Shown: piece by piece, positions 357 through 53,991 of the stretch
How the letters are laid out: each line of letters starts with the position of its first letter
How positions within the stretch are numbered: position 1 is the stretch's first letter
Source: a virus
Taxonomy: Duplodnaviria; Caudoviricetes
Strand: one strand, 5' to 3'
Length of the DNA: 64,000 bases
Virus record (IMG/VR): IMGVR_UViG_2636415703_000001
Location: 30,143-94,142 of that record
The notes under the pieces: model-generated
The model's input: only the letters and a program-made list of their open reading frames with translations
Database searches by the model: none
Told to the model about the DNA's origin: nothing
Made by a program: the position numbers and the translations under genes

Positions 357-818
357 CTAATTGGGCCACTCATATAAAAAGTGTTGCACCGCAACGACCT
401 CCAGGCCTCTCTTGATTTTCACAACCTGCTGAGGGCCGGTCGGCTCAAGTTCGATCGCCTGTTTAATCAATGGTGCTGCAGGCTTAACAGCCGCCGCTTT
501 GACCGGCTGGCATGCCTGCGTCGCCATCATTTTCTTTGCTTTGGCCGCAGGCCTCTTTATGGGCTTCTGGCTGAGATTCAGCAGCCGCTCTTTGCAGGAG
601 TCTGTTTCTTCAGGATTCTGGTTTTTCAAACATACTGGGCATCGCTCGGAATTACTATGATGCGTAAGTGCCACCGTCATCGCCTGCTTTGGGGTATAGA
701 GCGTGCCGATAAATATCCGGCTATCAGGCGTTTTCGGCAGAATTTTACAGCCTTCACGATGCAGCAGAGTACCGCTTTCATGATGAAAGCTGAGGTAGTA
801 TTTCTTTGCTTCTAACAT
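357..818 (-). CDS. Hypothetical protein with putative N-terminal His/Cys metal-binding motif
   Basis: 153-aa ORF with HxxxC...CxxC, GGA SD, upstream TTGATA-17-TACCTT promoter-like sequence and downstream terminator. Confidence 0.7.
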   Translation of the reverse strand: MLEAKKYYLSFHHESGTLLHREGCKILPKTPDSRIFIGTLYTPKQAMTVALTHHSNSERCPVCLKNQNPEETDSCKERLLNLSQKPIKRPAAKAKKMMATQACQPVKAAAVKPAAPLIKQAIELEPTGPQQVVKIKRGLEVVAVQHFLYEWPN

Positions 819-1027: not shown

Positions 1028-1285
1028 TCAGTGTAGCAGCGAAATGATTTTCCAATCAGTTGAAATAATATCGTCAGGAGTCGGATCATAAAAAGACAGC
1101 CCGCCTGACTCGCTCATGACAATAAATTGTCTTTGACTGTCAGCGTCTGTTTCAGTGAATACGTGAACTGGTGTATCGCCCCACTTGGTACGACGACAGA
1201 TAATACTGTCCGTCTGGCTTATGGCTGTCATGGCGTAGTTAAAACCTGTTTCCGCCTGGGATGGCGTGTCGGGGATATCAGACAT
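1028..1285 (-). CDS. DUF2829 / Tad2-like (Thoeris anti-defence sponge-like) protein
   Basis: Motif pattern F.xA...RxxW...YxPTxDDIIxxDW matches the DUF2829 family as recalled; GGGAG SD. Confidence 0.6.
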   Translation of the reverse strand: MSDIPDTPSQAETGFNYAMTAISQTDSIICRRTKWGDTPVHVFTETDADSQRQFIVMSESGGLSFYDPTPDDIISTDWKIISLLH

Positions 1286-1339
1286 GAAATGCTCCCTGTG
1301 CTTTGAGACGCGTCACAACAAGAGGTTCCAATCTCCGGG

Positions 1340-1417
1340 TGGTGACGTTGACAGGGTTGGAACTACCGGCGCACAAGAAAACCGGCCTACCCGAAGGTAG
1401 CCCCGCCAACGCCACCA
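1340..1417 (-). ncRNA. C4-like antisense RNA (P1/P4 immunity type)
   Basis: 78-nt unit closed by a TGGTGGCGTTGGC/GTCAACGTCACCA stem, with a CTACC-TTCG-GGTAG hairpin, a loop TTCTTGTGC and a bulge GTTCCAA; complementary targets upstream (1472-1480, 1491-1496) and downstream (1293-1301, 1326-1331). Confidence 0.85.
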
Positions 1418-1525
1418 TAGATACGCCTGGTTTTTTCCAGACGTGGTAGCGCCGAAGGCACTGAGTGCCTGTTCTTATGCTTCAGCAGGGTTCCAATCCT
1501 GACCGCTATACTCACGCGGCGCGGA

Positions 1526-1554
1526 CACTATAGCCACCATGTTGATAAATTCAA
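1526..1554 (-). promoter_or_regulatory. Sigma70 promoter for the c4 operon
   Basis: TTGAAT-16-TATAGT on the minus strand. Confidence 0.6.
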
Positions 1555-1621
1555 TATGTCTTATGTGAAATTATCCACTGGTCATTAGATCCAGACGCGG
1601 GTGAAGATTAACTAACCTCAT

Positions 1622-4612: not shown

Positions 4613-6325
4613 ATGAAAGGTACAAATCCCTTAATAATCCAACTTTACAATATGGATGAGTCTGTCATAAGACGCTTCGAAAAAGAGAATTTAGAGCATT
4701 CAGAGCATCCACTCAATGGAATGATTGATGTAGAAAATATAGATGAGATCCCTTACTTTTCTTCTATACCTAATAATATTCATGAAGCTGATTTCATCAT
4801 TATAGATACTACAGCGAGAAAACAAAAACCAGCAAACCGCTCAAGCAATATAAACATTCAAGTGCCAGACGGTGTTACTCATTATAATATTTTGCCTTTT
4901 GATGTTCATAGCATCATGAATGGCGTAAAACAAACCAGCCATAATCAATGTGTTATTTTTTTCATGAGCCGTTATTTTGCAGCCCAATATACTGTTTTCC
5001 TTGAAGGCTATGCAAAGCCATCACACCCTAATTACAACACGACAGGCATTGAATATAACGACGTCTCACGCGCGCCAAAATCAAGGCAAGGAAGTTTCTT
5101 TTCACCTCCCGGTGACAATAAATATAGAAACATTACTAAATTATTGAATAAACATATTAAAGATGCAATTTATAATGTTGTATTTCCGCAATCTCTTGAC
5201 TCAACACTATTAATGTCTAAATCAGGAGAAGTAGTATCAAAAGTCAGCGAATGGAACACGAAAGTTCTTTTCTTTTTTCCTGACATAAGAGATAAGGCTG
5301 GATTCTTAGCTGAATTGTTTACCAGCGTATTCCCTAGCGAGAAATACGATTTCATTAGCAAAAATCTCTCAGATTATGGAGATTTTAGATGGATTAATGA
5401 TTTCCCATACTTATCTCATAATGAAAGAAAAATAAATATTAATATAGCCACTGAAAAAGCTAGACATGAAAAGGCCTTAAATACCTTAGAGCACAGCCTA
5501 ACTTATGAGTCCCAACGCATTGAAAATGTTAAGCTAAAAAAATTACTTACTGAAACCGGTGATGATCTTAAGGACTCCGTTGAGTGGTTCTTAGAATATA
5601 TAGGTTTCGATAACATCGAAAACCCTGATGAAAAAACCCATAACCAAAATGAGAAAATTTATGAAGAAGATATCAGGATTGTCTCGCCTGAGATTACTTA
5701 TATTATAGAGACTAAAGGGCTTGGTGGAACGTCAACTGATTCCGACTGCGCACAACCGTCGAAAATAGTCCTTAGAAAAGAGGATGCAGACCTTGCTAAA
5801 AATAATGGGGCTGCAACTATTAATTATAAGGCTGTATATATAGTAAATAGTCAAAGATATAAAGAGCCAAAAATCAGAGATAACCCGCCCTTTAAAAAGC
5901 AGCAAATTGAAGATGCAAGAATAGCCAGAAGAGCGATGACCACCACATATGAATTATTCACCACATTTCATATGATAGAGGCCGGAATTTTATCAAAAAG
6001 CAACGCTAGGGATGCATTTAAACAAAGTGGTTTAATTAACTTTAAGGTGGGAATAAAATCATTATTTTGCGATGATCGTTTTGATGGTCCTGCTGTATAC
6101 TCTTTTGACCTAAGTAAAACACCAGAAATAGAAATTAATGAAGATGATTGTGTTGCATTCCAAGATGGAGACGACCATTGGTATCTATCGCCTATCATCG
6201 AAATACAAATCAAAAATTGCAAGGTAAGTTCCGTTAATGCTTCATCAGGCGCCAGTGCAGGAGTAAAGTTAAAAAAATATATTAAGTCGGCTAAAAACTT
6301 CTATCTAAAGAAAGCTCACAGTTGA
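4613..6325 (+). CDS. AT-rich accessory protein with C-terminal PD-(D/E)xK-like nuclease domain
   Basis: 570 aa; coiled coil then EEDIRIV...IIETKG...AQ motif; low GC. Confidence 0.6.
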   Translation: MKGTNPLIIQLYNMDESVIRRFEKENLEHSEHPLNGMIDVENIDEIPYFSSIPNNIHEADFIIIDTTARKQKPANRSSNINIQVPDGVTHYNILPFDVHSIMNGVKQTSHNQCVIFFMSRYFAAQYTVFLEGYAKPSHPNYNTTGIEYNDVSRAPKSRQGSFFSPPGDNKYRNITKLLNKHIKDAIYNVVFPQSLDSTLLMSKSGEVVSKVSEWNTKVLFFFPDIRDKAGFLAELFTSVFPSEKYDFISKNLSDYGDFRWINDFPYLSHNERKININIATEKARHEKALNTLEHSLTYESQRIENVKLKKLLTETGDDLKDSVEWFLEYIGFDNIENPDEKTHNQNEKIYEEDIRIVSPEITYIIETKGLGGTSTDSDCAQPSKIVLRKEDADLAKNNGAATINYKAVYIVNSQRYKEPKIRDNPPFKKQQIEDARIARRAMTTTYELFTTFHMIEAGILSKSNARDAFKQSGLINFKVGIKSLFCDDRFDGPAVYSFDLSKTPEIEINEDDCVAFQDGDDHWYLSPIIEIQIKNCKVSSVNASSGASAGVKLKKYIKSAKNFYLKKAHS

Positions 6326-6329
6326 TAAG

Positions 6330-6355
6330 TTAAAGGCCGCCTCGACGGCCTTTAA
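6330..6355. terminator. Hairpin between convergent genes
   Basis: TTAAAGGCCG-CCTCGA-CGGCCTTTAA. Confidence 0.65.
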
Positions 6356-6395
6356 ATTTGCCCTACTAAATATTACGTTCTAACAAGTTATGTAG

Positions 6396-7775
6396 CTATA
6401 GCGTGCTTTCAACCGCAGATTCAGGCGAAAACATGGCAAAAGACATGCCTCTGCCTTCGCCAAATTCCTCTTCAATCTCCCCGGATACGGCGGTCAGAAC
6501 GTCGGTCAGCGTCAGCTCACCGCCGCCGAACATATCCCCCAGCGCCTGCTGCTGGTGTAACAGCTCGTCATTGATCTTCTGCGCCATCTTTTTAAACGCG
6601 GCCCCGATACGTTTCGCGCTGCGGTTGTTTGCCACGATAAACAGCGCCAGTGCTTCGGCCTCTTTGCTGGATTCCTCAAATAGTCCCTGCTGTGCCAGCA
6701 CTTCCTGTATGGCCTGCCCGCTGTCTTTTGCCTGGCGCACCAGCTTGATCGCATCCTGCAGCGCGGCGATTGCCTGCTGATCAAGCCCATCAACCGACTG
6801 CACCCCGTCCACCAGTCCGGTGACGGCCTGGCGGTGAACGTCTCCGGACAGCATCTGCATCTGCGCAAATTCGCTTGCCGATGTGTTAAGCGCCGTCAGG
6901 ATGTTGCGCATTTCCGGGTCCGGCTCTTCGGATACCAGTTTAACCAGGCGTTCATCTTTGTAGGCGCGGGCAAAGATCGCATTCTGCATACGGTCGATCA
7001 GCTGCTTCGTCGGGCGCCCGTCTTCGGTCAACAGGCCTGCCGTCGCCGTGTCGCCAATCTCTTTCATGAATGCCCGGATAAAGCTGTCATTTGAGCGCGC
7101 CAGAAGGTTGCCGTCGTCGGACGGATTGAATATGGCCATCAGCCGTTCATCAAGCATTTCGGCATCAACAAAGGCCTTCTCGCTCGCTGCCATTTCCTGC
7201 AAATCAGAGAGGTTTGAGTCTTTCGCAAACTGCGCCCGGTCAACGTCCGTAATACGCTCACGCACCAATACCGGCATATCCATCTGCGCTATATCTGACG
7301 CTTTAAGGCCGTAGTCTTTTGCGTGGTCGATCAGGTACTGCCGGTACTCGTCGGCCTGTCCCTGCTCATAGGCGCGGGTGATCCCCATCGAGCGGCCATT
7401 GCCCGACTCCACCACATTATCAGCGCCTACGATTGGCGCGCCGTGGCTGCTCATACCTGAATCGGTCAGCTTGGCCGGTCGGAGGTTGCCCGCGATTTTG
7501 GAAACCTGCACTTTGCTGGTCAGGCGGGTGCGGTCGCGTGGCTGCAACTCAGCCGGGAACAGCGGGTTAATGGTGCCATCGAGGTTGTTGGAGATGATTA
7601 GATGGCGCGCATCCACCACCTTAAACGCGGTCTTTACTTCCTGCCCTTTGCCGGTGACGACGTATGACGATCGCCCGGTTGTGGTCTGCGCCTTACGCAA
7701 TGAGCCCACCAGCCCGATCAGGGCAAATATGCTGCCAGCTTCGCTCAGCAGATTTTGAATTTTCTCGTTCAGCAT
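6396..7775 (-). CDS. ddrB: DdrB-like protein (ParB-like domain)
   Basis: ELQPRDR, GAPIV and VESGNGR motifs; last gene of the dar operon as in P1. Confidence 0.75.
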   Translation of the reverse strand: MLNEKIQNLLSEAGSIFALIGLVGSLRKAQTTTGRSSYVVTGKGQEVKTAFKVVDARHLIISNNLDGTINPLFPAELQPRDRTRLTSKVQVSKIAGNLRPAKLTDSGMSSHGAPIVGADNVVESGNGRSMGITRAYEQGQADEYRQYLIDHAKDYGLKASDIAQMDMPVLVRERITDVDRAQFAKDSNLSDLQEMAASEKAFVDAEMLDERLMAIFNPSDDGNLLARSNDSFIRAFMKEIGDTATAGLLTEDGRPTKQLIDRMQNAIFARAYKDERLVKLVSEEPDPEMRNILTALNTSASEFAQMQMLSGDVHRQAVTGLVDGVQSVDGLDQQAIAALQDAIKLVRQAKDSGQAIQEVLAQQGLFEESSKEAEALALFIVANNRSAKRIGAAFKKMAQKINDELLHQQQALGDMFGGGELTLTDVLTAVSGEIEEEFGEGRGMSFAMFSPESAVESTL

Positions 7776-31456: not shown

Positions 31457-33121
31457 TTTTTTACTATTAGTAGTAAGAGGCACTATAGTGAAACTATCCA
31501 CGGAAAACCCAAACACTCTTTCAAAACTAGATTTAACCCACACCTCAACTTTTTTCTTGCCGCTATTATTAGAAAGCCACTTCGCATCGCATACAAAATC
31601 TCCCTTCCCAAAAGCCCATTGATTGCAAAGGTCATAAACAGTAACTGATTGATAAAACTTCGTAGCAGTATCCTCAAGTACTTGAACATCTATACCTGGC
31701 AAGGGTGCTGGCACTATTTCTTGATGTCTATTTTCTATGAAAACAGCTTGATGCTTGTAATAAAGATGTGTAGCTCGGAGATTGCCTTGCGCCGGATTAA
31801 CAAACATGCTCGGCCAGCAGAAAATCTCAGGACTTTTCAGTTTATCCATTTGAAAACTTAAAAACCTACCAAATATCAAGCGGACGGGTAAGTTTGCATC
31901 ACTATAACTAAAATCATCATTCTCTTTAATTAACCGCTGAAGGTTTTTGCTATTTTTACACCAGCCATTTATCTCCCCTAAGTATTTCCTAGGGCTAATA
32001 TAACCTAGTTCATCACAAAGTGCAGTGGAAATAGTCCAATACTCTTCAGAAGAATGTAACTTTATATAAGATTTAAACTGCTCATACTTAGTACTTACTG
32101 TAATACATAGCTTTTCAAATCTAATTGCAGGGTTAATATCGTGTGTAAATCTTTCAGGTTGGGAAAGATCAAAAATTAAACCCTCTGCAGGATTGATAGC
32201 AATATCGATCAGTAGTAAATAGAGCGCCACCAGTGGGCTTTCAATGCTGTCAGGCCTTTTCCCGTCATTTACAACATCAAGGAAAAACCTAAATGCATTA
32301 TAGTACTTTCCACTAAGCATATTTGCACTGTCAAAAAAAGCCCAATCACAAGCACTTCTTTTAAAAAAAGTCCTGATGTAAAGCATTTGATTAAATCTTG
32401 CCTGACCTTCATACAAATCAACAAGGTTTAAGGTAGGAAAATATTCATTGTTGCCTTCTGCATCTTTATGTCCCTCTCCATCAAAGTATTTATTTATATT
32501 TTCACAAAAAACCTTAGCGGTAGGTATAAGATAGTTTTCTTCACCAAATGTTGTCTCAAGCAATAATAAGTGATGAAAAAACACTTTCGACATAACATCT
32601 ATAGCTGATGTAAATCCTTCACTCTTTTTTAATTCGTCAATTCCACTCGATTCTTTTAATATCGCATGGTAATTATATATACTCACGTAAGAATCCAATA
32701 AAGAACATATTACTGGAACTTCTTGCTCGGTTATTGTGTAATCATGACTTTTGGCATAAGCAACAATTGGTTTGAATTTCCCACTTAACTTCGAAAATTC
32801 GTCAAAATCTTCTTTATTACAAATAGCCAGAGCTGGTAAGCTTAAACTAAAAATTATACCTGACAAAGATCCTATATACTGCCACCAATGCAGGTTTTCA
32901 TGTAGTGCAGTTGATCCTGCAAAAACAATCTCTCCTTTAGTTAAAAGGTGCAAGTCCTCTTCTGCATCATTTTTTCTCAGCACCTCCTGGACATCTGGAT
33001 TTACACGTAATGTATAATATGTAAAAGTATAAACCCCCCTTATATAACCGCCAGGCTCTAATGGACCAAATTTATCTTGAAGACTCATATCAACAATTAG
33101 TTTTTCTATTTTACCTTTCAT
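31454..33121 (-). CDS. AT-rich accessory protein, putative gluzincin metallopeptidase
   Basis: 555 aa; HENLH (HExxH) plus downstream YEGQA. Confidence 0.55.
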   Translation of the reverse strand: MKGKIEKLIVDMSLQDKFGPLEPGGYIRGVYTFTYYTLRVNPDVQEVLRKNDAEEDLHLLTKGEIVFAGSTALHENLHWWQYIGSLSGIIFSLSLPALAICNKEDFDEFSKLSGKFKPIVAYAKSHDYTITEQEVPVICSLLDSYVSIYNYHAILKESSGIDELKKSEGFTSAIDVMSKVFFHHLLLLETTFGEENYLIPTAKVFCENINKYFDGEGHKDAEGNNEYFPTLNLVDLYEGQARFNQMLYIRTFFKRSACDWAFFDSANMLSGKYYNAFRFFLDVVNDGKRPDSIESPLVALYLLLIDIAINPAEGLIFDLSQPERFTHDINPAIRFEKLCITVSTKYEQFKSYIKLHSSEEYWTISTALCDELGYISPRKYLGEINGWCKNSKNLQRLIKENDDFSYSDANLPVRLIFGRFLSFQMDKLKSPEIFCWPSMFVNPAQGNLRATHLYYKHQAVFIENRHQEIVPAPLPGIDVQVLEDTATKFYQSVTVYDLCNQWAFGKGDFVCDAKWLSNNSGKKKVEVWVKSSFERVFGFSVDSFTIVPLTTNSKK

Positions 33122-48030: not shown

Positions 48031-48275
48031 CGTGGATAATTTGTTGTTTATTGAGTTATCCACTTATCCACCGGATAGATCATATAAATCGATCATATAT
48101 AGATCCTATTTAGATCAAATAAGATCACCTGCTTTTTAGGATGATGATTTTATTGATAAATATTACACTTCGCGTTGTTGGTTTCATGGTAATTGTTGCT
48201 GGTTTCATGGTGAATGTTGCTGGTTTCATGGTGAATGTTGTTGGTTTCATGGTAGGGTGTTGCTGGTTTCATGGT
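48031..48275 (+). promoter_or_regulatory. Plasmid origin (oriR-like)
   Basis: Three DnaA-like boxes (48031, 48056, 48064), five GATC sites (48078-48126), an AT-rich spacer and five iterons. Confidence 0.9.
48174..48275 (+). repeat. Five origin iterons GTTG(C/T)TGGTTTCATGGT
   Basis: Starts at 48174, 48195, 48216, 48237 and 48259 (21-22 bp period). Confidence 0.95.
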
Positions 48276-48318
48276 AGCGCAGCGAATTACCCACATTGAT
48301 CGCTAAAAGGTTCTTTCG

Positions 48319-49200
48319 ATGGAAAATGACGAAGAAATCAAGACGATAGGTGATGCTCTGGTGTACAGCTCTGAGCAAGAAGCGAAAAGTTATACACTGA
48401 CACCTACAGCTAATCGGACAGTCCAGCCGATCGCGTTGATGCGTTTGGGGGTCTTTGTGCCTGCTGTCCGTAATAAACCCCAGCGCGGGAATGCTGTCAT
48501 TGATGCGTCTGAAGACTTTGGTCAGCTGGAGATAGCGAAAGCAGAGGGCTACACCAATATCATGATTAAGGGCAGCAGGCTCGATATGAGCACTGACTTT
48601 AAGACGTGGATCGGTGCTATCCGGGCATTCAGTAAGTATGGTGCTGACAGCAATCGCATTAAGTTACCGTTTACCGAATTTGCCAAGCTGTGCGGAATAG
48701 CTGTCGATGACATTAATCAGCGTTCTCGCGATCGCTTCTTCAACTCCTTTCTAAGACTGGCCTCTCTTGTCGTCTCGTTCAAAAACAAAGACGGCAGCAA
48801 AGTGACCATTACGCACCTACTCAATAGCGCCCATTTTGATACTGAGAAAGACATTATCACTCTGGAAGGGGACTCCCGGCTGTGGGAGCTTTACGCCTTT
48901 GATCACAAGGTGTTACTCCAGCTAAAAGCTATCCAGGCATTGCCGCGCAAAGAGTCGGCCCAGGCGCTCTATGTTTACATCGAGAGCCTGCCTACTGGCT
49001 TCCTGCAGGTGTCGTTAGAGCGTCTTCGTGATCGCCTCAACTTGAACTCCACTATCAGCACACAGAACAACGTAGTCCGTAAAGCCATGAAAGAGCTGGC
49101 CGACATAGGATACCTGTCGTTCACTGAAGTTAAGAAGAATGGCGTGGTTTACTTCCAGATTCACTCTCGAAAGCCTGACCTCCTTCCAAACAAAGAATAA
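48319..49200 (+). CDS. repA: Plasmid replication initiator (P1 RepA / RepFIB family)
   Basis: TVQPIALMRLGVFVP and RLDMSTDFKTWIG motifs; flanked by iterons. Confidence 0.92.
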   Translation: MENDEEIKTIGDALVYSSEQEAKSYTLTPTANRTVQPIALMRLGVFVPAVRNKPQRGNAVIDASEDFGQLEIAKAEGYTNIMIKGSRLDMSTDFKTWIGAIRAFSKYGADSNRIKLPFTEFAKLCGIAVDDINQRSRDRFFNSFLRLASLVVSFKNKDGSKVTITHLLNSAHFDTEKDIITLEGDSRLWELYAFDHKVLLQLKAIQALPRKESAQALYVYIESLPTGFLQVSLERLRDRLNLNSTISTQNNVVRKAMKELADIGYLSFTEVKKNGVVYFQIHSRKPDLLPNKE

Positions 49201-49202
49201 TC

Positions 49203-49712
49203 ATTGCTGGTTTCATGGTAAGCGTTGTTGGTTTCATGGTGAACATTGTTGGTTTCATGGAAGCATTGCTGGAATATCGGTAGTTAATGCTAATGGCTCA
49301 GCTTTTTAGAGTGTTTTTTACTCACAAATGGCTGCTACCATGAAATCGACAACGCTTTTTGTGATTGAGTTGGCGTATTGCCATGAAACCAGCAACGCTG
49401 GTTACTCTCATAGTCGTGTTCACCATGAAACCAGCAACTGCAAAGGGAACACAGCTGTTAAGCCATGAATCCAGCAATGCCACAGTAAAGGTATTACGAT
49501 AGTAAGCTATCTGCGGTGTAAAACTGCATTGTCTTGTCAAAGCAGCACATCAGCAAACCCACGTGAAGAGTATGTGATAGATGTTGCTGGTTTCATGGCA
49601 ACTCTATAATCAACAACTTTATGAGGATAAAATTTGAGCGGCAAAATTGTTTTGCCATGAATAGAGCAACGTTGGTGGAAAAAGCGACTATTTCGCCATG
49701 AGCCAACTATCT
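49203..49712. repeat. incA-like copy-control iteron array (about 10 copies, both orientations)
   Basis: Direct copies at 49203, 49224, 49245 and 49583; inverted copies at 49337, 49380, 49422, 49462 and 49655; further degenerate copies. Confidence 0.9.
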
Positions 49713-53822: not shown

Positions 53823-53991
53823 TCCCCTGATACACCCCGCTTTAAATTTTTGCCTATCTGATGACCTGCTGGCTGTACCTTAAGCCAGCGGGTCTTAGTC
53901 TTATCTTTTAAATGTAAGTTTAAGATTAAATTTAAATAAATTTTAGAATGTAATAAACTTAAGTGCGGAATTAACCACTGGAATATTACAT

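Follow-up and report, generated by a model that had tools for sequence, protein, structure and literature searches.

A close known counterpart of the locus reported here is the immunity region immI of phages P1 and P7, where the promoters P51a/b are followed by a1, b1, c4, a2, b2, icd and ant1/ant2, and where the C4 antisense RNA keeps icd and ant silent in lysogens. We found an RNA of the same family (85 bits) in a stretch of viral DNA of 64,000 nucleotides (nt), comprising bases 30143-94142 of the 94,142-bp IMG/VR record IMGVR_UViG_2636415703_000001 and referred to below as the window. This RNA precedes a gene for a protein of 85 amino acids (aa) related to the Tad2 sponges, a group including SPO1 Gp34.65, ModTad2, HgmTad2/AcrIIA7 and SptTad2 (PF11195). 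Up to this open reading frame (ORF) the order of the elements equals that of a1, b1, c4, a2, b2 and icd annotated in the P1 record and, as in immI, b2 lies on the ribosome-binding site (RBS) of the first ORF, which starts ~50 nt after C4. The two systems nevertheless differ in several respects: in the window the first ORF is Tad2-like and not Icd-like (P1 Icd matches NF033153), no Ant is found after it nor elsewhere in the genome, the module is located between prt and pro and is read away from repL, and a search at the promoter revealed no repeated operator of the C1 type, the counts being barely above chance.

Phage D6 offers a second comparison. Its first C4 module consists of C4 (20964-21049), icd (orf19), an antirepressor gene (orf18) and the 65-aa orf17, with orf18 and orf17 abutting and one boundary base common to both; it lies between darB and repL/pro and is therefore syntenic with the module of the window. 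The second D6 module comprises C4 (75233-75320) and icd (orf83) and ends with a 313-aa antirepressor, orf82. As detailed below, the Tad2-like domain of D6 either forms a gene of its own at the end of the operon or makes up the C-terminus of an antirepressor, in both cases behind icd, whereas in the window the Tad2-like gene is the first and only constant cargo, stands directly under b2 and scores above the Pfam cut-off.

That Tad2 genes occur in most P1/D6 phage-plasmids is already in print; a published DefenseFinder screen reports them for 93% of the D6-group and 56% of the P1-group sequences. In the article texts that we searched, we found no link between C4 and a Tad2-family gene and no description of a Tad2 under an antisense-RNA gate. 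Thus, within that literature, the presence of Tad2 in these elements is known but its link to the RNA is new.

The C4 RNA and its pairing sites

The original prediction, made from the letters of the DNA, proposed a C4-like RNA at this locus. A cmscan search identified it as a full-length member of RF01695 on the minus strand (window 1335-1422; model positions 1-87 of 87), with 85.2 bits (gathering score 45) and an E-value of 2.4e-15. RF01695 was the only family above threshold in the 64-kb window, and the genome contains a single copy of C4 in its 94,142 bp. Judging from the 77-nt misc_RNA annotated in P1, a mature C4 RNA of ~78 nt, extending roughly from 1417 to 1340, is plausible.

The same prediction placed pairing sites for a hairpin loop and for a GUUCCAA bulge around this RNA in the P1/P7 a1b1/a2b2 layout, with b2 overlapping the Shine-Dalgarno sequence of the 85-aa ORF, and all of these coordinates and pairings proved correct. 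The single-stranded GUUCCAA, a' (1357-1363), and the loop of the second hairpin, b' (UUCUUGUGC, 1371-1379), were positioned by the cmscan alignment, and all the elements named here lie on the minus strand. Complementary to a' are two copies of UUGGAAC: a1 (1490-1496), located in the leader and paired with a' in 13 of 13 sequences, and a2 (1325-1331), located downstream and paired in 97.8% of alignment cells, with one mismatch each in two relatives. Loop b' can in turn pair with b1 in the leader (GCAUAAGAA, 1472-1480), with one G.U pair, and with b2 downstream (GCACAGGGA, 1293-1301), with two. On the minus strand the second hairpin has UUUUCUUGUGCG as its loop, and the unpaired stretch that follows reads AGUUCCAACCC. 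The Shine-Dalgarno GGGAG occupies 1296-1292 and is overlapped by b2 (1301-1293), and the ATG of the 85-aa ORF follows at 1285-1283.

RNAduplex gave -11.7 kcal/mol for the C4 loop on its own b1 and -13.4 kcal/mol for the loop on its own b2 region, as compared with a mean of -5.8 kcal/mol for shuffled targets (best of 200, -13.6). In the minimum free energy fold of the 258-nt transcript (z -4.07), a1 and b1 pair in cis with a' and b'.

A putative promoter for this transcript (1527-1554, minus strand) was found in a consensus scan with 9 of 12 matches and consists of TTGAAT (1554-1549), a 16-nt spacer and TATAGT (1532-1527). As the scan yielded no more sites than it did on shuffled sequences, it is conservation that bears the argument for this site: both hexamers are kept in eight of nine distinct relatives, the remaining one having TTTAGT. 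Its position corresponds to that of the P1 c4 promoter.

Directly upstream of the -35 hexamer lies a conserved motif, CCAGTGGATAATTTCAC (window 1565-1581, minus strand), which recurs with 2-3 mismatches at window 31488-31504 (minus), window 53965-53981 (minus) and genome 18142-18156. In a search for C1-type operators, the 17-mer upstream of the -35 was found three times in the window at up to three mismatches, against 0.09 expected, and the 15-mer core of this region occurred at four genomic sites, where mononucleotide shuffles gave 1.9; k-mer counts revealed no repeated element upstream of the c4 promoter. The motif may be an operator, with counts barely above chance.

Relatives of the module were gathered among plasmids, in IMG/VR, and in GTDB genomes and metagenomes. 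In 17 of the 18 loci fetched, a full C4 (77-85 bits) ends ~50 nt before the ORF, the exception, L015, being a 26-residue partial match. The linkage extends to L014, whose protein is 32% identical to that of the window, and to a distant metagenome subfamily (L018-L020); identity of the protein falls as low as 32%, whereas the RNA and the promoter hardly change.

Changes within the loop and its downstream target are compensated. In an alignment of 13 distinct sequences, 96.6% of the cells that make up the nine b'-b2 pairs are paired. At two of the nine positions (10 cells) a change in one partner is matched by a change in the other, one position going from U-A to C-G in four sequences and the other being divided between G-C and A-U, six and six. 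None of 500 shuffles reached the observed paired percentage or the covariation score, and sliding the partner by 1-3 columns lowered the pairing to 29-52%. On these comparative grounds, the b'-b2 pairing is under selection. No evidence of covariation can come from a'-a1, since neither ever varies. As for b1, the 70.9% obtained by counting columns understates its pairing with b', because MAFFT set the b1 of type 2 (see below) one column off; the duplex energies used in place of that count range from -10.6 to -19.3 kcal/mol in the 13 relatives.

Three types of loop and target could be distinguished, UUCUUGUGC/GCACAGGGA, UCCUCGUAC/GUACGAGGA and CCCUUGUAC/GUACAGGG. Loops of type 2 reach -14 to -18 kcal/mol on most type-2 targets and only -5.7 to -8.6 kcal/mol on type-1 targets. 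Type-1 loops discriminate less (-13.5 kcal/mol on their own target against ~-11.5 on the other), owing to their G.U pairs. Two loci, L010 and L011, carry a type-2 b1 beside a loop and b2 of type 1. These specificity classes recall the heteroimmunity of P1 and P7 reportedly treated by Citron and Schuster in 1990.

Together, the RNA family, the layout, the covariation and the conserved linkage make it very likely that the 85-aa gene is under the control of an RNA gate of the C4 type.

Two further observations concern this region. A 46-aa ORF (window 1278-1418, minus strand; L003 4027-4167, minus strand) lies entirely over the C4 RNA gene; its equivalent in CP060164 is annotated as an 'ash family protein' (Pfam Phage_ASH, 26.4 bits against a cut-off of 26), and the gene table of that record omits the real 85-aa Tad2-like ORF. 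At least some 'Ash family' annotations thus look like translations of the C4 RNA gene. Public RNA runs were considered as transcript support and set aside, since assembled contigs reveal no ends, strand or level: the region was inside a 98,191-nt contig in two true RNA libraries and was covered by contigs of 223-244 nt over 1271-1507 in two runs of doubtful RNA origin, neither of which was used as evidence.

The 85-aa protein and the cargo of other C4 RNAs

The gene under this gate (1028-1285, minus strand) had been described in the original prediction as Tad2/DUF2829-like, and both profile and fold searches agreed. The product scores 28.9 bits on Pfam PF11195 (Tad2-like; cut-off 25, E 1.7e-6), with residues 16-81 on profile positions 4-73 of 73. 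NCBIfam returned no family for it at E-values up to 1, in the same search in which P1 Icd scored 52.6 bits on NF033153; the ORF alone found no match among PDB sequences at E 10, nor by tblastn in the phage collection. Close homologues bear the NCBI name 'Thoeris anti-defense Tad2 family protein'. Older records of the Prokaryotic Genome Annotation Pipeline (PGAP) call relatives 'MW1434 family type I TA system toxin', a label that goes back to a table of bioinformatic predictions in which, in the portion concerned, MW1434 is merely listed.

An exhaustive phmmer search yielded 19 proteins at E-values up to 0.001, 14 of them short. These short proteins, six close homologues and the window protein were aligned (20 sequences), leaving out five long repetitive matches. 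Residues A18, C30, R31, R32, W35, H41, G61, P68, D77 and W78 are invariant in this alignment; D72 is present in at least 90% of the sequences, position 66 is Tyr or Phe, and position 69 is Ser or Thr throughout.

The AlphaFold2 (AF2) model, with a predicted local distance difference test (pLDDT) score of 82.3, comprises a helix (H10-23) followed by five strands. In the Foldseek search of the PDB the entries listed at ranks 1-19 were all Tad2, with template-modelling (TM) scores of 0.48-0.65 and E-values from 3.4e-3; the ten best entries of VIA-align were likewise all Tad2, with a Z of 5.7-6.7 over 66-68 residues, at a root-mean-square deviation of ~3 A, the next fold reaching 4.8. Structure matches in BFVD were Tad2-like viral proteins. 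The protein is similar in length to Tad2 sponges (85 against ~89 aa), shows the helix a1 and five-strand topology of SPO1 Tad2 and contains the motifs R-x-x-W and P-x-x-D-x-x-x-D-W, although its identity to Tad2 proteins is only 13-18%; the invariant Cys30 and His41 are peculiar to its clade. The residue list of an SPO1 Tad2 preprint names W25, N26, W73, S76, T78 and D79 as ligand contacts and D67 and H71 as water-coordinating. When this list was transferred by an alignment of hidden Markov models (HMMs), W25 and D79 were found to be kept (W35 and D72), as was S76 (T69, Ser/Thr), and W73 is replaced conservatively (Y66). Profile and predicted structure place the 85-aa protein in the Tad2 (DUF2829) family, as a divergent member.

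Intact copies of the gene show ratios of nonsynonymous to synonymous substitution rates (dN/dS) of 0.10-0.41; as far as sequence comparison can tell, they are under purifying selection. Other copies are broken by one of two independent lesions at the same place, a TAG at codon 10 in L010 and L011, arising from a C-to-T change in a CCAGG context, and a single frameshift after codon 10 that is common to L012, L013 and L017. For the broken copies gene callers report a 67-aa product starting at Met19 (P0008).

Two other Tad2-like domains are encoded in the genome, outside the window, in a protein of 194 aa (40.7 bits; genome 13706-14290, L057 1207-1791) and in one of 172 aa (20.3 bits, which is under the cut-off; genome 18536-19054, L057 6037-6555), both on the minus strand. 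Each has the domain at its C-terminus, behind an N-terminal part of ~100 aa without known family, and each stands outside C4 control. The trio is also present in two relatives and is absent from P1. An HMM built from the C4-linked clade found the 172-aa paralogue as its best outside match (32.4 bits, full length); the D6 copies described next scored ~14 bits.

The 65-aa orf17 that closes the first D6 module gave 12.8 bits on PF11195, far below the cut-off. When aligned with the window clade by hhalign, however, it matched over 63 columns (E 1e-4, probability 58%), with CRR..W and D..DW in common, and the last 65 residues of the antirepressor orf82 matched over 65 columns (E 5.7e-5, probability 66%). 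From these two alignments we conclude that, at the level of sequence, the Tad2-like domain has long travelled with C4 operons, in some cases as part of the antirepressor itself. The module of the Pantoea elements (see below) has the appearance of a C4 operon that has lost every gene but the last, b2 having come to lie on the RBS of the domain itself.

This comparison bears on the claim of the original prediction that the Tad2-like gene stands in place of icd-ant. Its first half held: in the genome no match to the ANT, Bro-N or pRha (Rha) families was found at E 0.01, nor to the Icd-like NF033153 at the same threshold in a search that had no positive control, and tblastn of the genome ORFs against the half of P1 that holds icd, ant and kilA found no homologue of P1 Icd, Ant or KilA. 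A simple swap, on the other hand, does not describe the relation, as the D6 operon holds icd, an antirepressor and a Tad2-like gene together.

A survey of Enterobacterales detected C4 in 19 of 151 genomes. We examined 31 non-plasmid C4 loci, 29 of the 30 located in this survey plus two from genome G002; seven further matches had no locus. The first ORF could be named for 29 of the 31, L056 and L028 being dropped because no ORF with a Shine-Dalgarno sequence was found within 220 nt; in L037, L050 and L046 it starts 118-141 nt downstream. These 29 ORFs comprised eight Icd-like proteins, three pRha, two Bro-N, one AntA, three Ner/SfsB-type HTH_35, two ankyrin-repeat proteins, no Tad2-like protein and about ten without a match. 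The ankyrin-repeat ORFs (L052 1643-2050 and L054 804-1448) both come from genome G052, and the three Ner/SfsB-type helix-turn-helix ORFs from three loci of genome G097. C4 ahead of genes other than ant, such as Bro-N, is noted in a passage on APSE phages. The HMM of the C4-linked clade, run against six-frame translations of the 31 chromosomal C4 loci (1.5 kb on each side), returned one partial match as its best result, at E 0.007, so that the Tad2-like link is confined to P1/D6-type elements in this sample. In terms of sequence, then, C4 is a movable gate that stands before a variety of genes, most of them for switch proteins, and Tad2-like cargo is peculiar, within the sample, to P1/D6 phage-plasmids.

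The phage-plasmid and the surroundings of the module

The ORFs of the window matched phage P1 proteins at 22-61% identity in tblastn, among them tail, head, replication and methylase genes, and the closest relatives at the DNA level are non-mobilisable Pantoea plasmids of 87-95 kb; pEuc3 and pPA-MXU-90 are examples of these plasmids. By these sequence relationships the source is a 94-kb phage-plasmid distantly related to P1 and D6. At the locus the gene order is a darB-like SNF2 protein, portal, a 153-aa ORF, the 85-aa ORF with C4 (both leftward), pro (the gene for the head-processing protease), a RepL homologue and lysozyme.

The 153-aa ORF (357-818, minus strand) is a variable neighbour downstream of the 85-aa ORF on the same strand. 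It matched no family in Pfam, PHROGs or NCBIfam, its matches in the ESM Atlas were all below 0.9 and carried no names, and its homologues were found in Pantoea phage-plasmids only. The plasmid pPA-MXU-90 (L002) lacks it: there, the 85-aa ORF is followed by the convergent portal gene with no gene between them, from which it follows that the 85-aa ORF is the sole constant cargo. The 153-aa ORF probably has a promoter of its own. A scan for terminators between the two ORFs found none on the minus strand, and folding revealed nothing beyond a hairpin rich in A and U and an inverted repeat of 12 bp; the repeat, at ~925-950, precedes the 153-aa ORF and overlaps a TATAAT. In the N-terminal part of the product an H-x3-C ... 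C-x2-C pattern is conserved, and the tail is rich in Lys, Ala and Pro.

What lies between the Tad2-like gene and portal varies from one element to the next. In the metagenome relative L020 (1226-3621) the C4-gated Tad2-like gene is followed directly by genes for an AAA_21/AAA_15 ATPase of 511 aa and for a Cys-rich protein of 283 aa, which together resemble a two-gene defence system, possibly a Septu-like one. Elsewhere in the window (~48180-49600), 11 copies of the core CCATGAAACC, in repeats of 19-21 bp, flank the RepA homologue and look like P1-type iterons. The genome contains 92 Chi octamers (36 + 56).

A possible role for the gate and competing explanations

We propose that one promoter (~1554-1527) would give rise to a transcript containing the leader with the decoys a1/b1, the C4 RNA, a2/b2 and the 85-aa gene, and that C4 would be excised from it, as occurs through RNase P in P1. 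In an established plasmid-prophage C4 would build up, and its a' and b' would pair with a2 and b2; with b2 paired, the Shine-Dalgarno sequence would be covered and translation of the 85-aa protein blocked. On entry into a cell without a pool of C4, the first transcripts would be translated, giving a brief pulse of protein that ends when the gate closes. Most likely this protein would form a small oligomer and bind an immune signal derived from nucleotides, and as a sponge it could protect the incoming phage-plasmid during establishment while leaving the lysogen's own immunity intact later. Processing, repression, the pulse and the binding of a ligand are what we infer from the analysis, and the order of pulse and silence follows the P1 model, in which C4 is a trans-acting product of the same transcript. 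Why a sponge might be silenced in lysogens is suggested by defences based on decoy signals: a 2025 preprint describes host systems that make such signals and kill cells that a sponge has depleted of them.

That the 85-aa protein is a signal sponge used during establishment is a tentative assignment, which we would rate at somewhat less than an even chance, and we hold the complete account, an RNA-gated sponge that is pulsed and then silenced, with the same reserve. Several observations weigh against it. The fold scores are moderate (Foldseek E ~3e-3, Z below 8), the short helix a2 of Tad2 is absent from the model, and four of the SPO1 residues are changed (N26 to G36, T78 to D71, H71 to S64 and D67 to S60). 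The frame is broken near codon 10 in five of 17 relatives, making the gene dispensable in some lineages. At the level of the RNA, the type-2 loop of L017 faces a type-1 b2 (-7.5 kcal/mol) and L014 has an internal mismatch between loop and b2 (-9.5 kcal/mol). The two other Tad2-like paralogues of the genome could already supply sponge activity, and the occurrence of the same domain at the end of D6 C4 operons, or fused to their antirepressor, fits a switch as well as it fits a sponge.

The Tad2-like protein could accordingly be a part of the lysis/lysogeny switch, either an antirepressor, its partner or its oligomerising part, left behind when a D6-type c4-icd-ant-orf17 operon lost icd and the antirepressor gene. 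In that case the task of C4 would be to keep an anti-immunity function off in lysogens, as in P1, and the loop/target types would be classical heteroimmunity groups like those of P1 and P7. The existence of such types is in line with this idea, as are the syntenic D6 operon, with its abutting antirepressor and Tad2-like genes, and the hhalign matches of orf17 and of the orf82 tail, although their probabilities are just 58-66%. Behind other C4 RNAs, moreover, 14 of the 29 first ORFs are Icd-like or belong to antirepressor families, and the genome, which encodes a C1-like repressor at 5936-7027, holds no other recognisable antirepressor. Half of the Tad2 contact residues are changed; the most conserved ligand contacts, Trp and Asp, are kept nonetheless, and the protein scores above the Pfam threshold for Tad2-like proteins. 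Outside the clade its best relative, at 32.4 bits, is a paralogue from the same genome that C4 does not control, the D6 copies reaching ~14 bits, and no case of repressor binding by a DUF2829 protein was found in the literature examined. On balance we regard a switch function as less likely than a sponge, but as a serious rival to it.

Two other explanations appear much less probable. An antisense RNA over an RBS is also the architecture of type I toxin-antitoxin systems, in which case the 85-aa protein would be harmful and C4 its antisense antitoxin in an addiction module. The former PGAP name given to relatives points in that direction, as does L017, the sole locus whose C4 no longer matches b2 and whose ORF is broken, a single case of little weight; a sponge can, besides, do harm where decoy-guard systems exist. 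The table behind that name is one of predictions, however, and no toxicity test of MW1434 was found in that part of the source. The 85-aa protein has no long hydrophobic segment and is modelled as a soluble a/b domain. Type I toxins are typically small hydrophobic membrane peptides that are toxic when expressed. Addiction, moreover, needs a differential stability that C4 and its target, coming from one transcript, do not have, and L012 and L013 carry the same frameshift although their C4 and b2 still match. We give an addiction module a very small chance. About as small is the chance that we give to a decaying relic of immI, C4 and the ORF being kept by their linkage to the essential neighbours prt and pro. 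Such decay would account for the five broken copies of 17 and for the recombinants with a mismatched b1 (L010/L011) or b2 (L017), but it is at odds with dN/dS values of 0.10-0.41, with the compensatory changes in loop and b2, with an RNA and promoter that hardly vary beside a protein diverged to 32% identity, and with the retention of the module in all 17 relatives that have a real homologue.

A further possibility, which we consider improbable, is that the gate acts between elements: a resident C4 would silence in trans the Tad2-like gene of an incoming relative of the same type, and a Thoeris-, CBASS- or Pycsar-like defence of the host would destroy the invader, the loop/b2 types being escape variants. 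If so, heteroimmunity groups would be set by whose anti-defence is disarmed and not by the repressor.

Temperate phages face a dilemma with counter-defence, which is needed at entry but in the lysogen disarms the host and may set off decoy-guard systems. Anti-CRISPRs are known to be controlled by a protein repressor, Aca, which shuts down acr-aca operons after an early burst. The proposed behaviour of the present locus is alike in that strong early expression of a counter-defence gene would be followed by a shut-off encoded in the same operon; it differs in the shut-off factor, in acr-aca operons a DNA-binding and in one case an RNA-binding protein, here an antisense RNA, and the two are not homologous. 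An antisense-RNA gate on a gene of the sponge family would, if confirmed, represent a second, RNA-based solution to this dilemma, and the natural compensatory variants make it directly testable with reporters. The finding also bears on the role of the small Tad2-like domains that end the C4-controlled antirepressor operons of P1/D6 phage-plasmids, which may be sponges placed on the earliest operon or parts of the switch.

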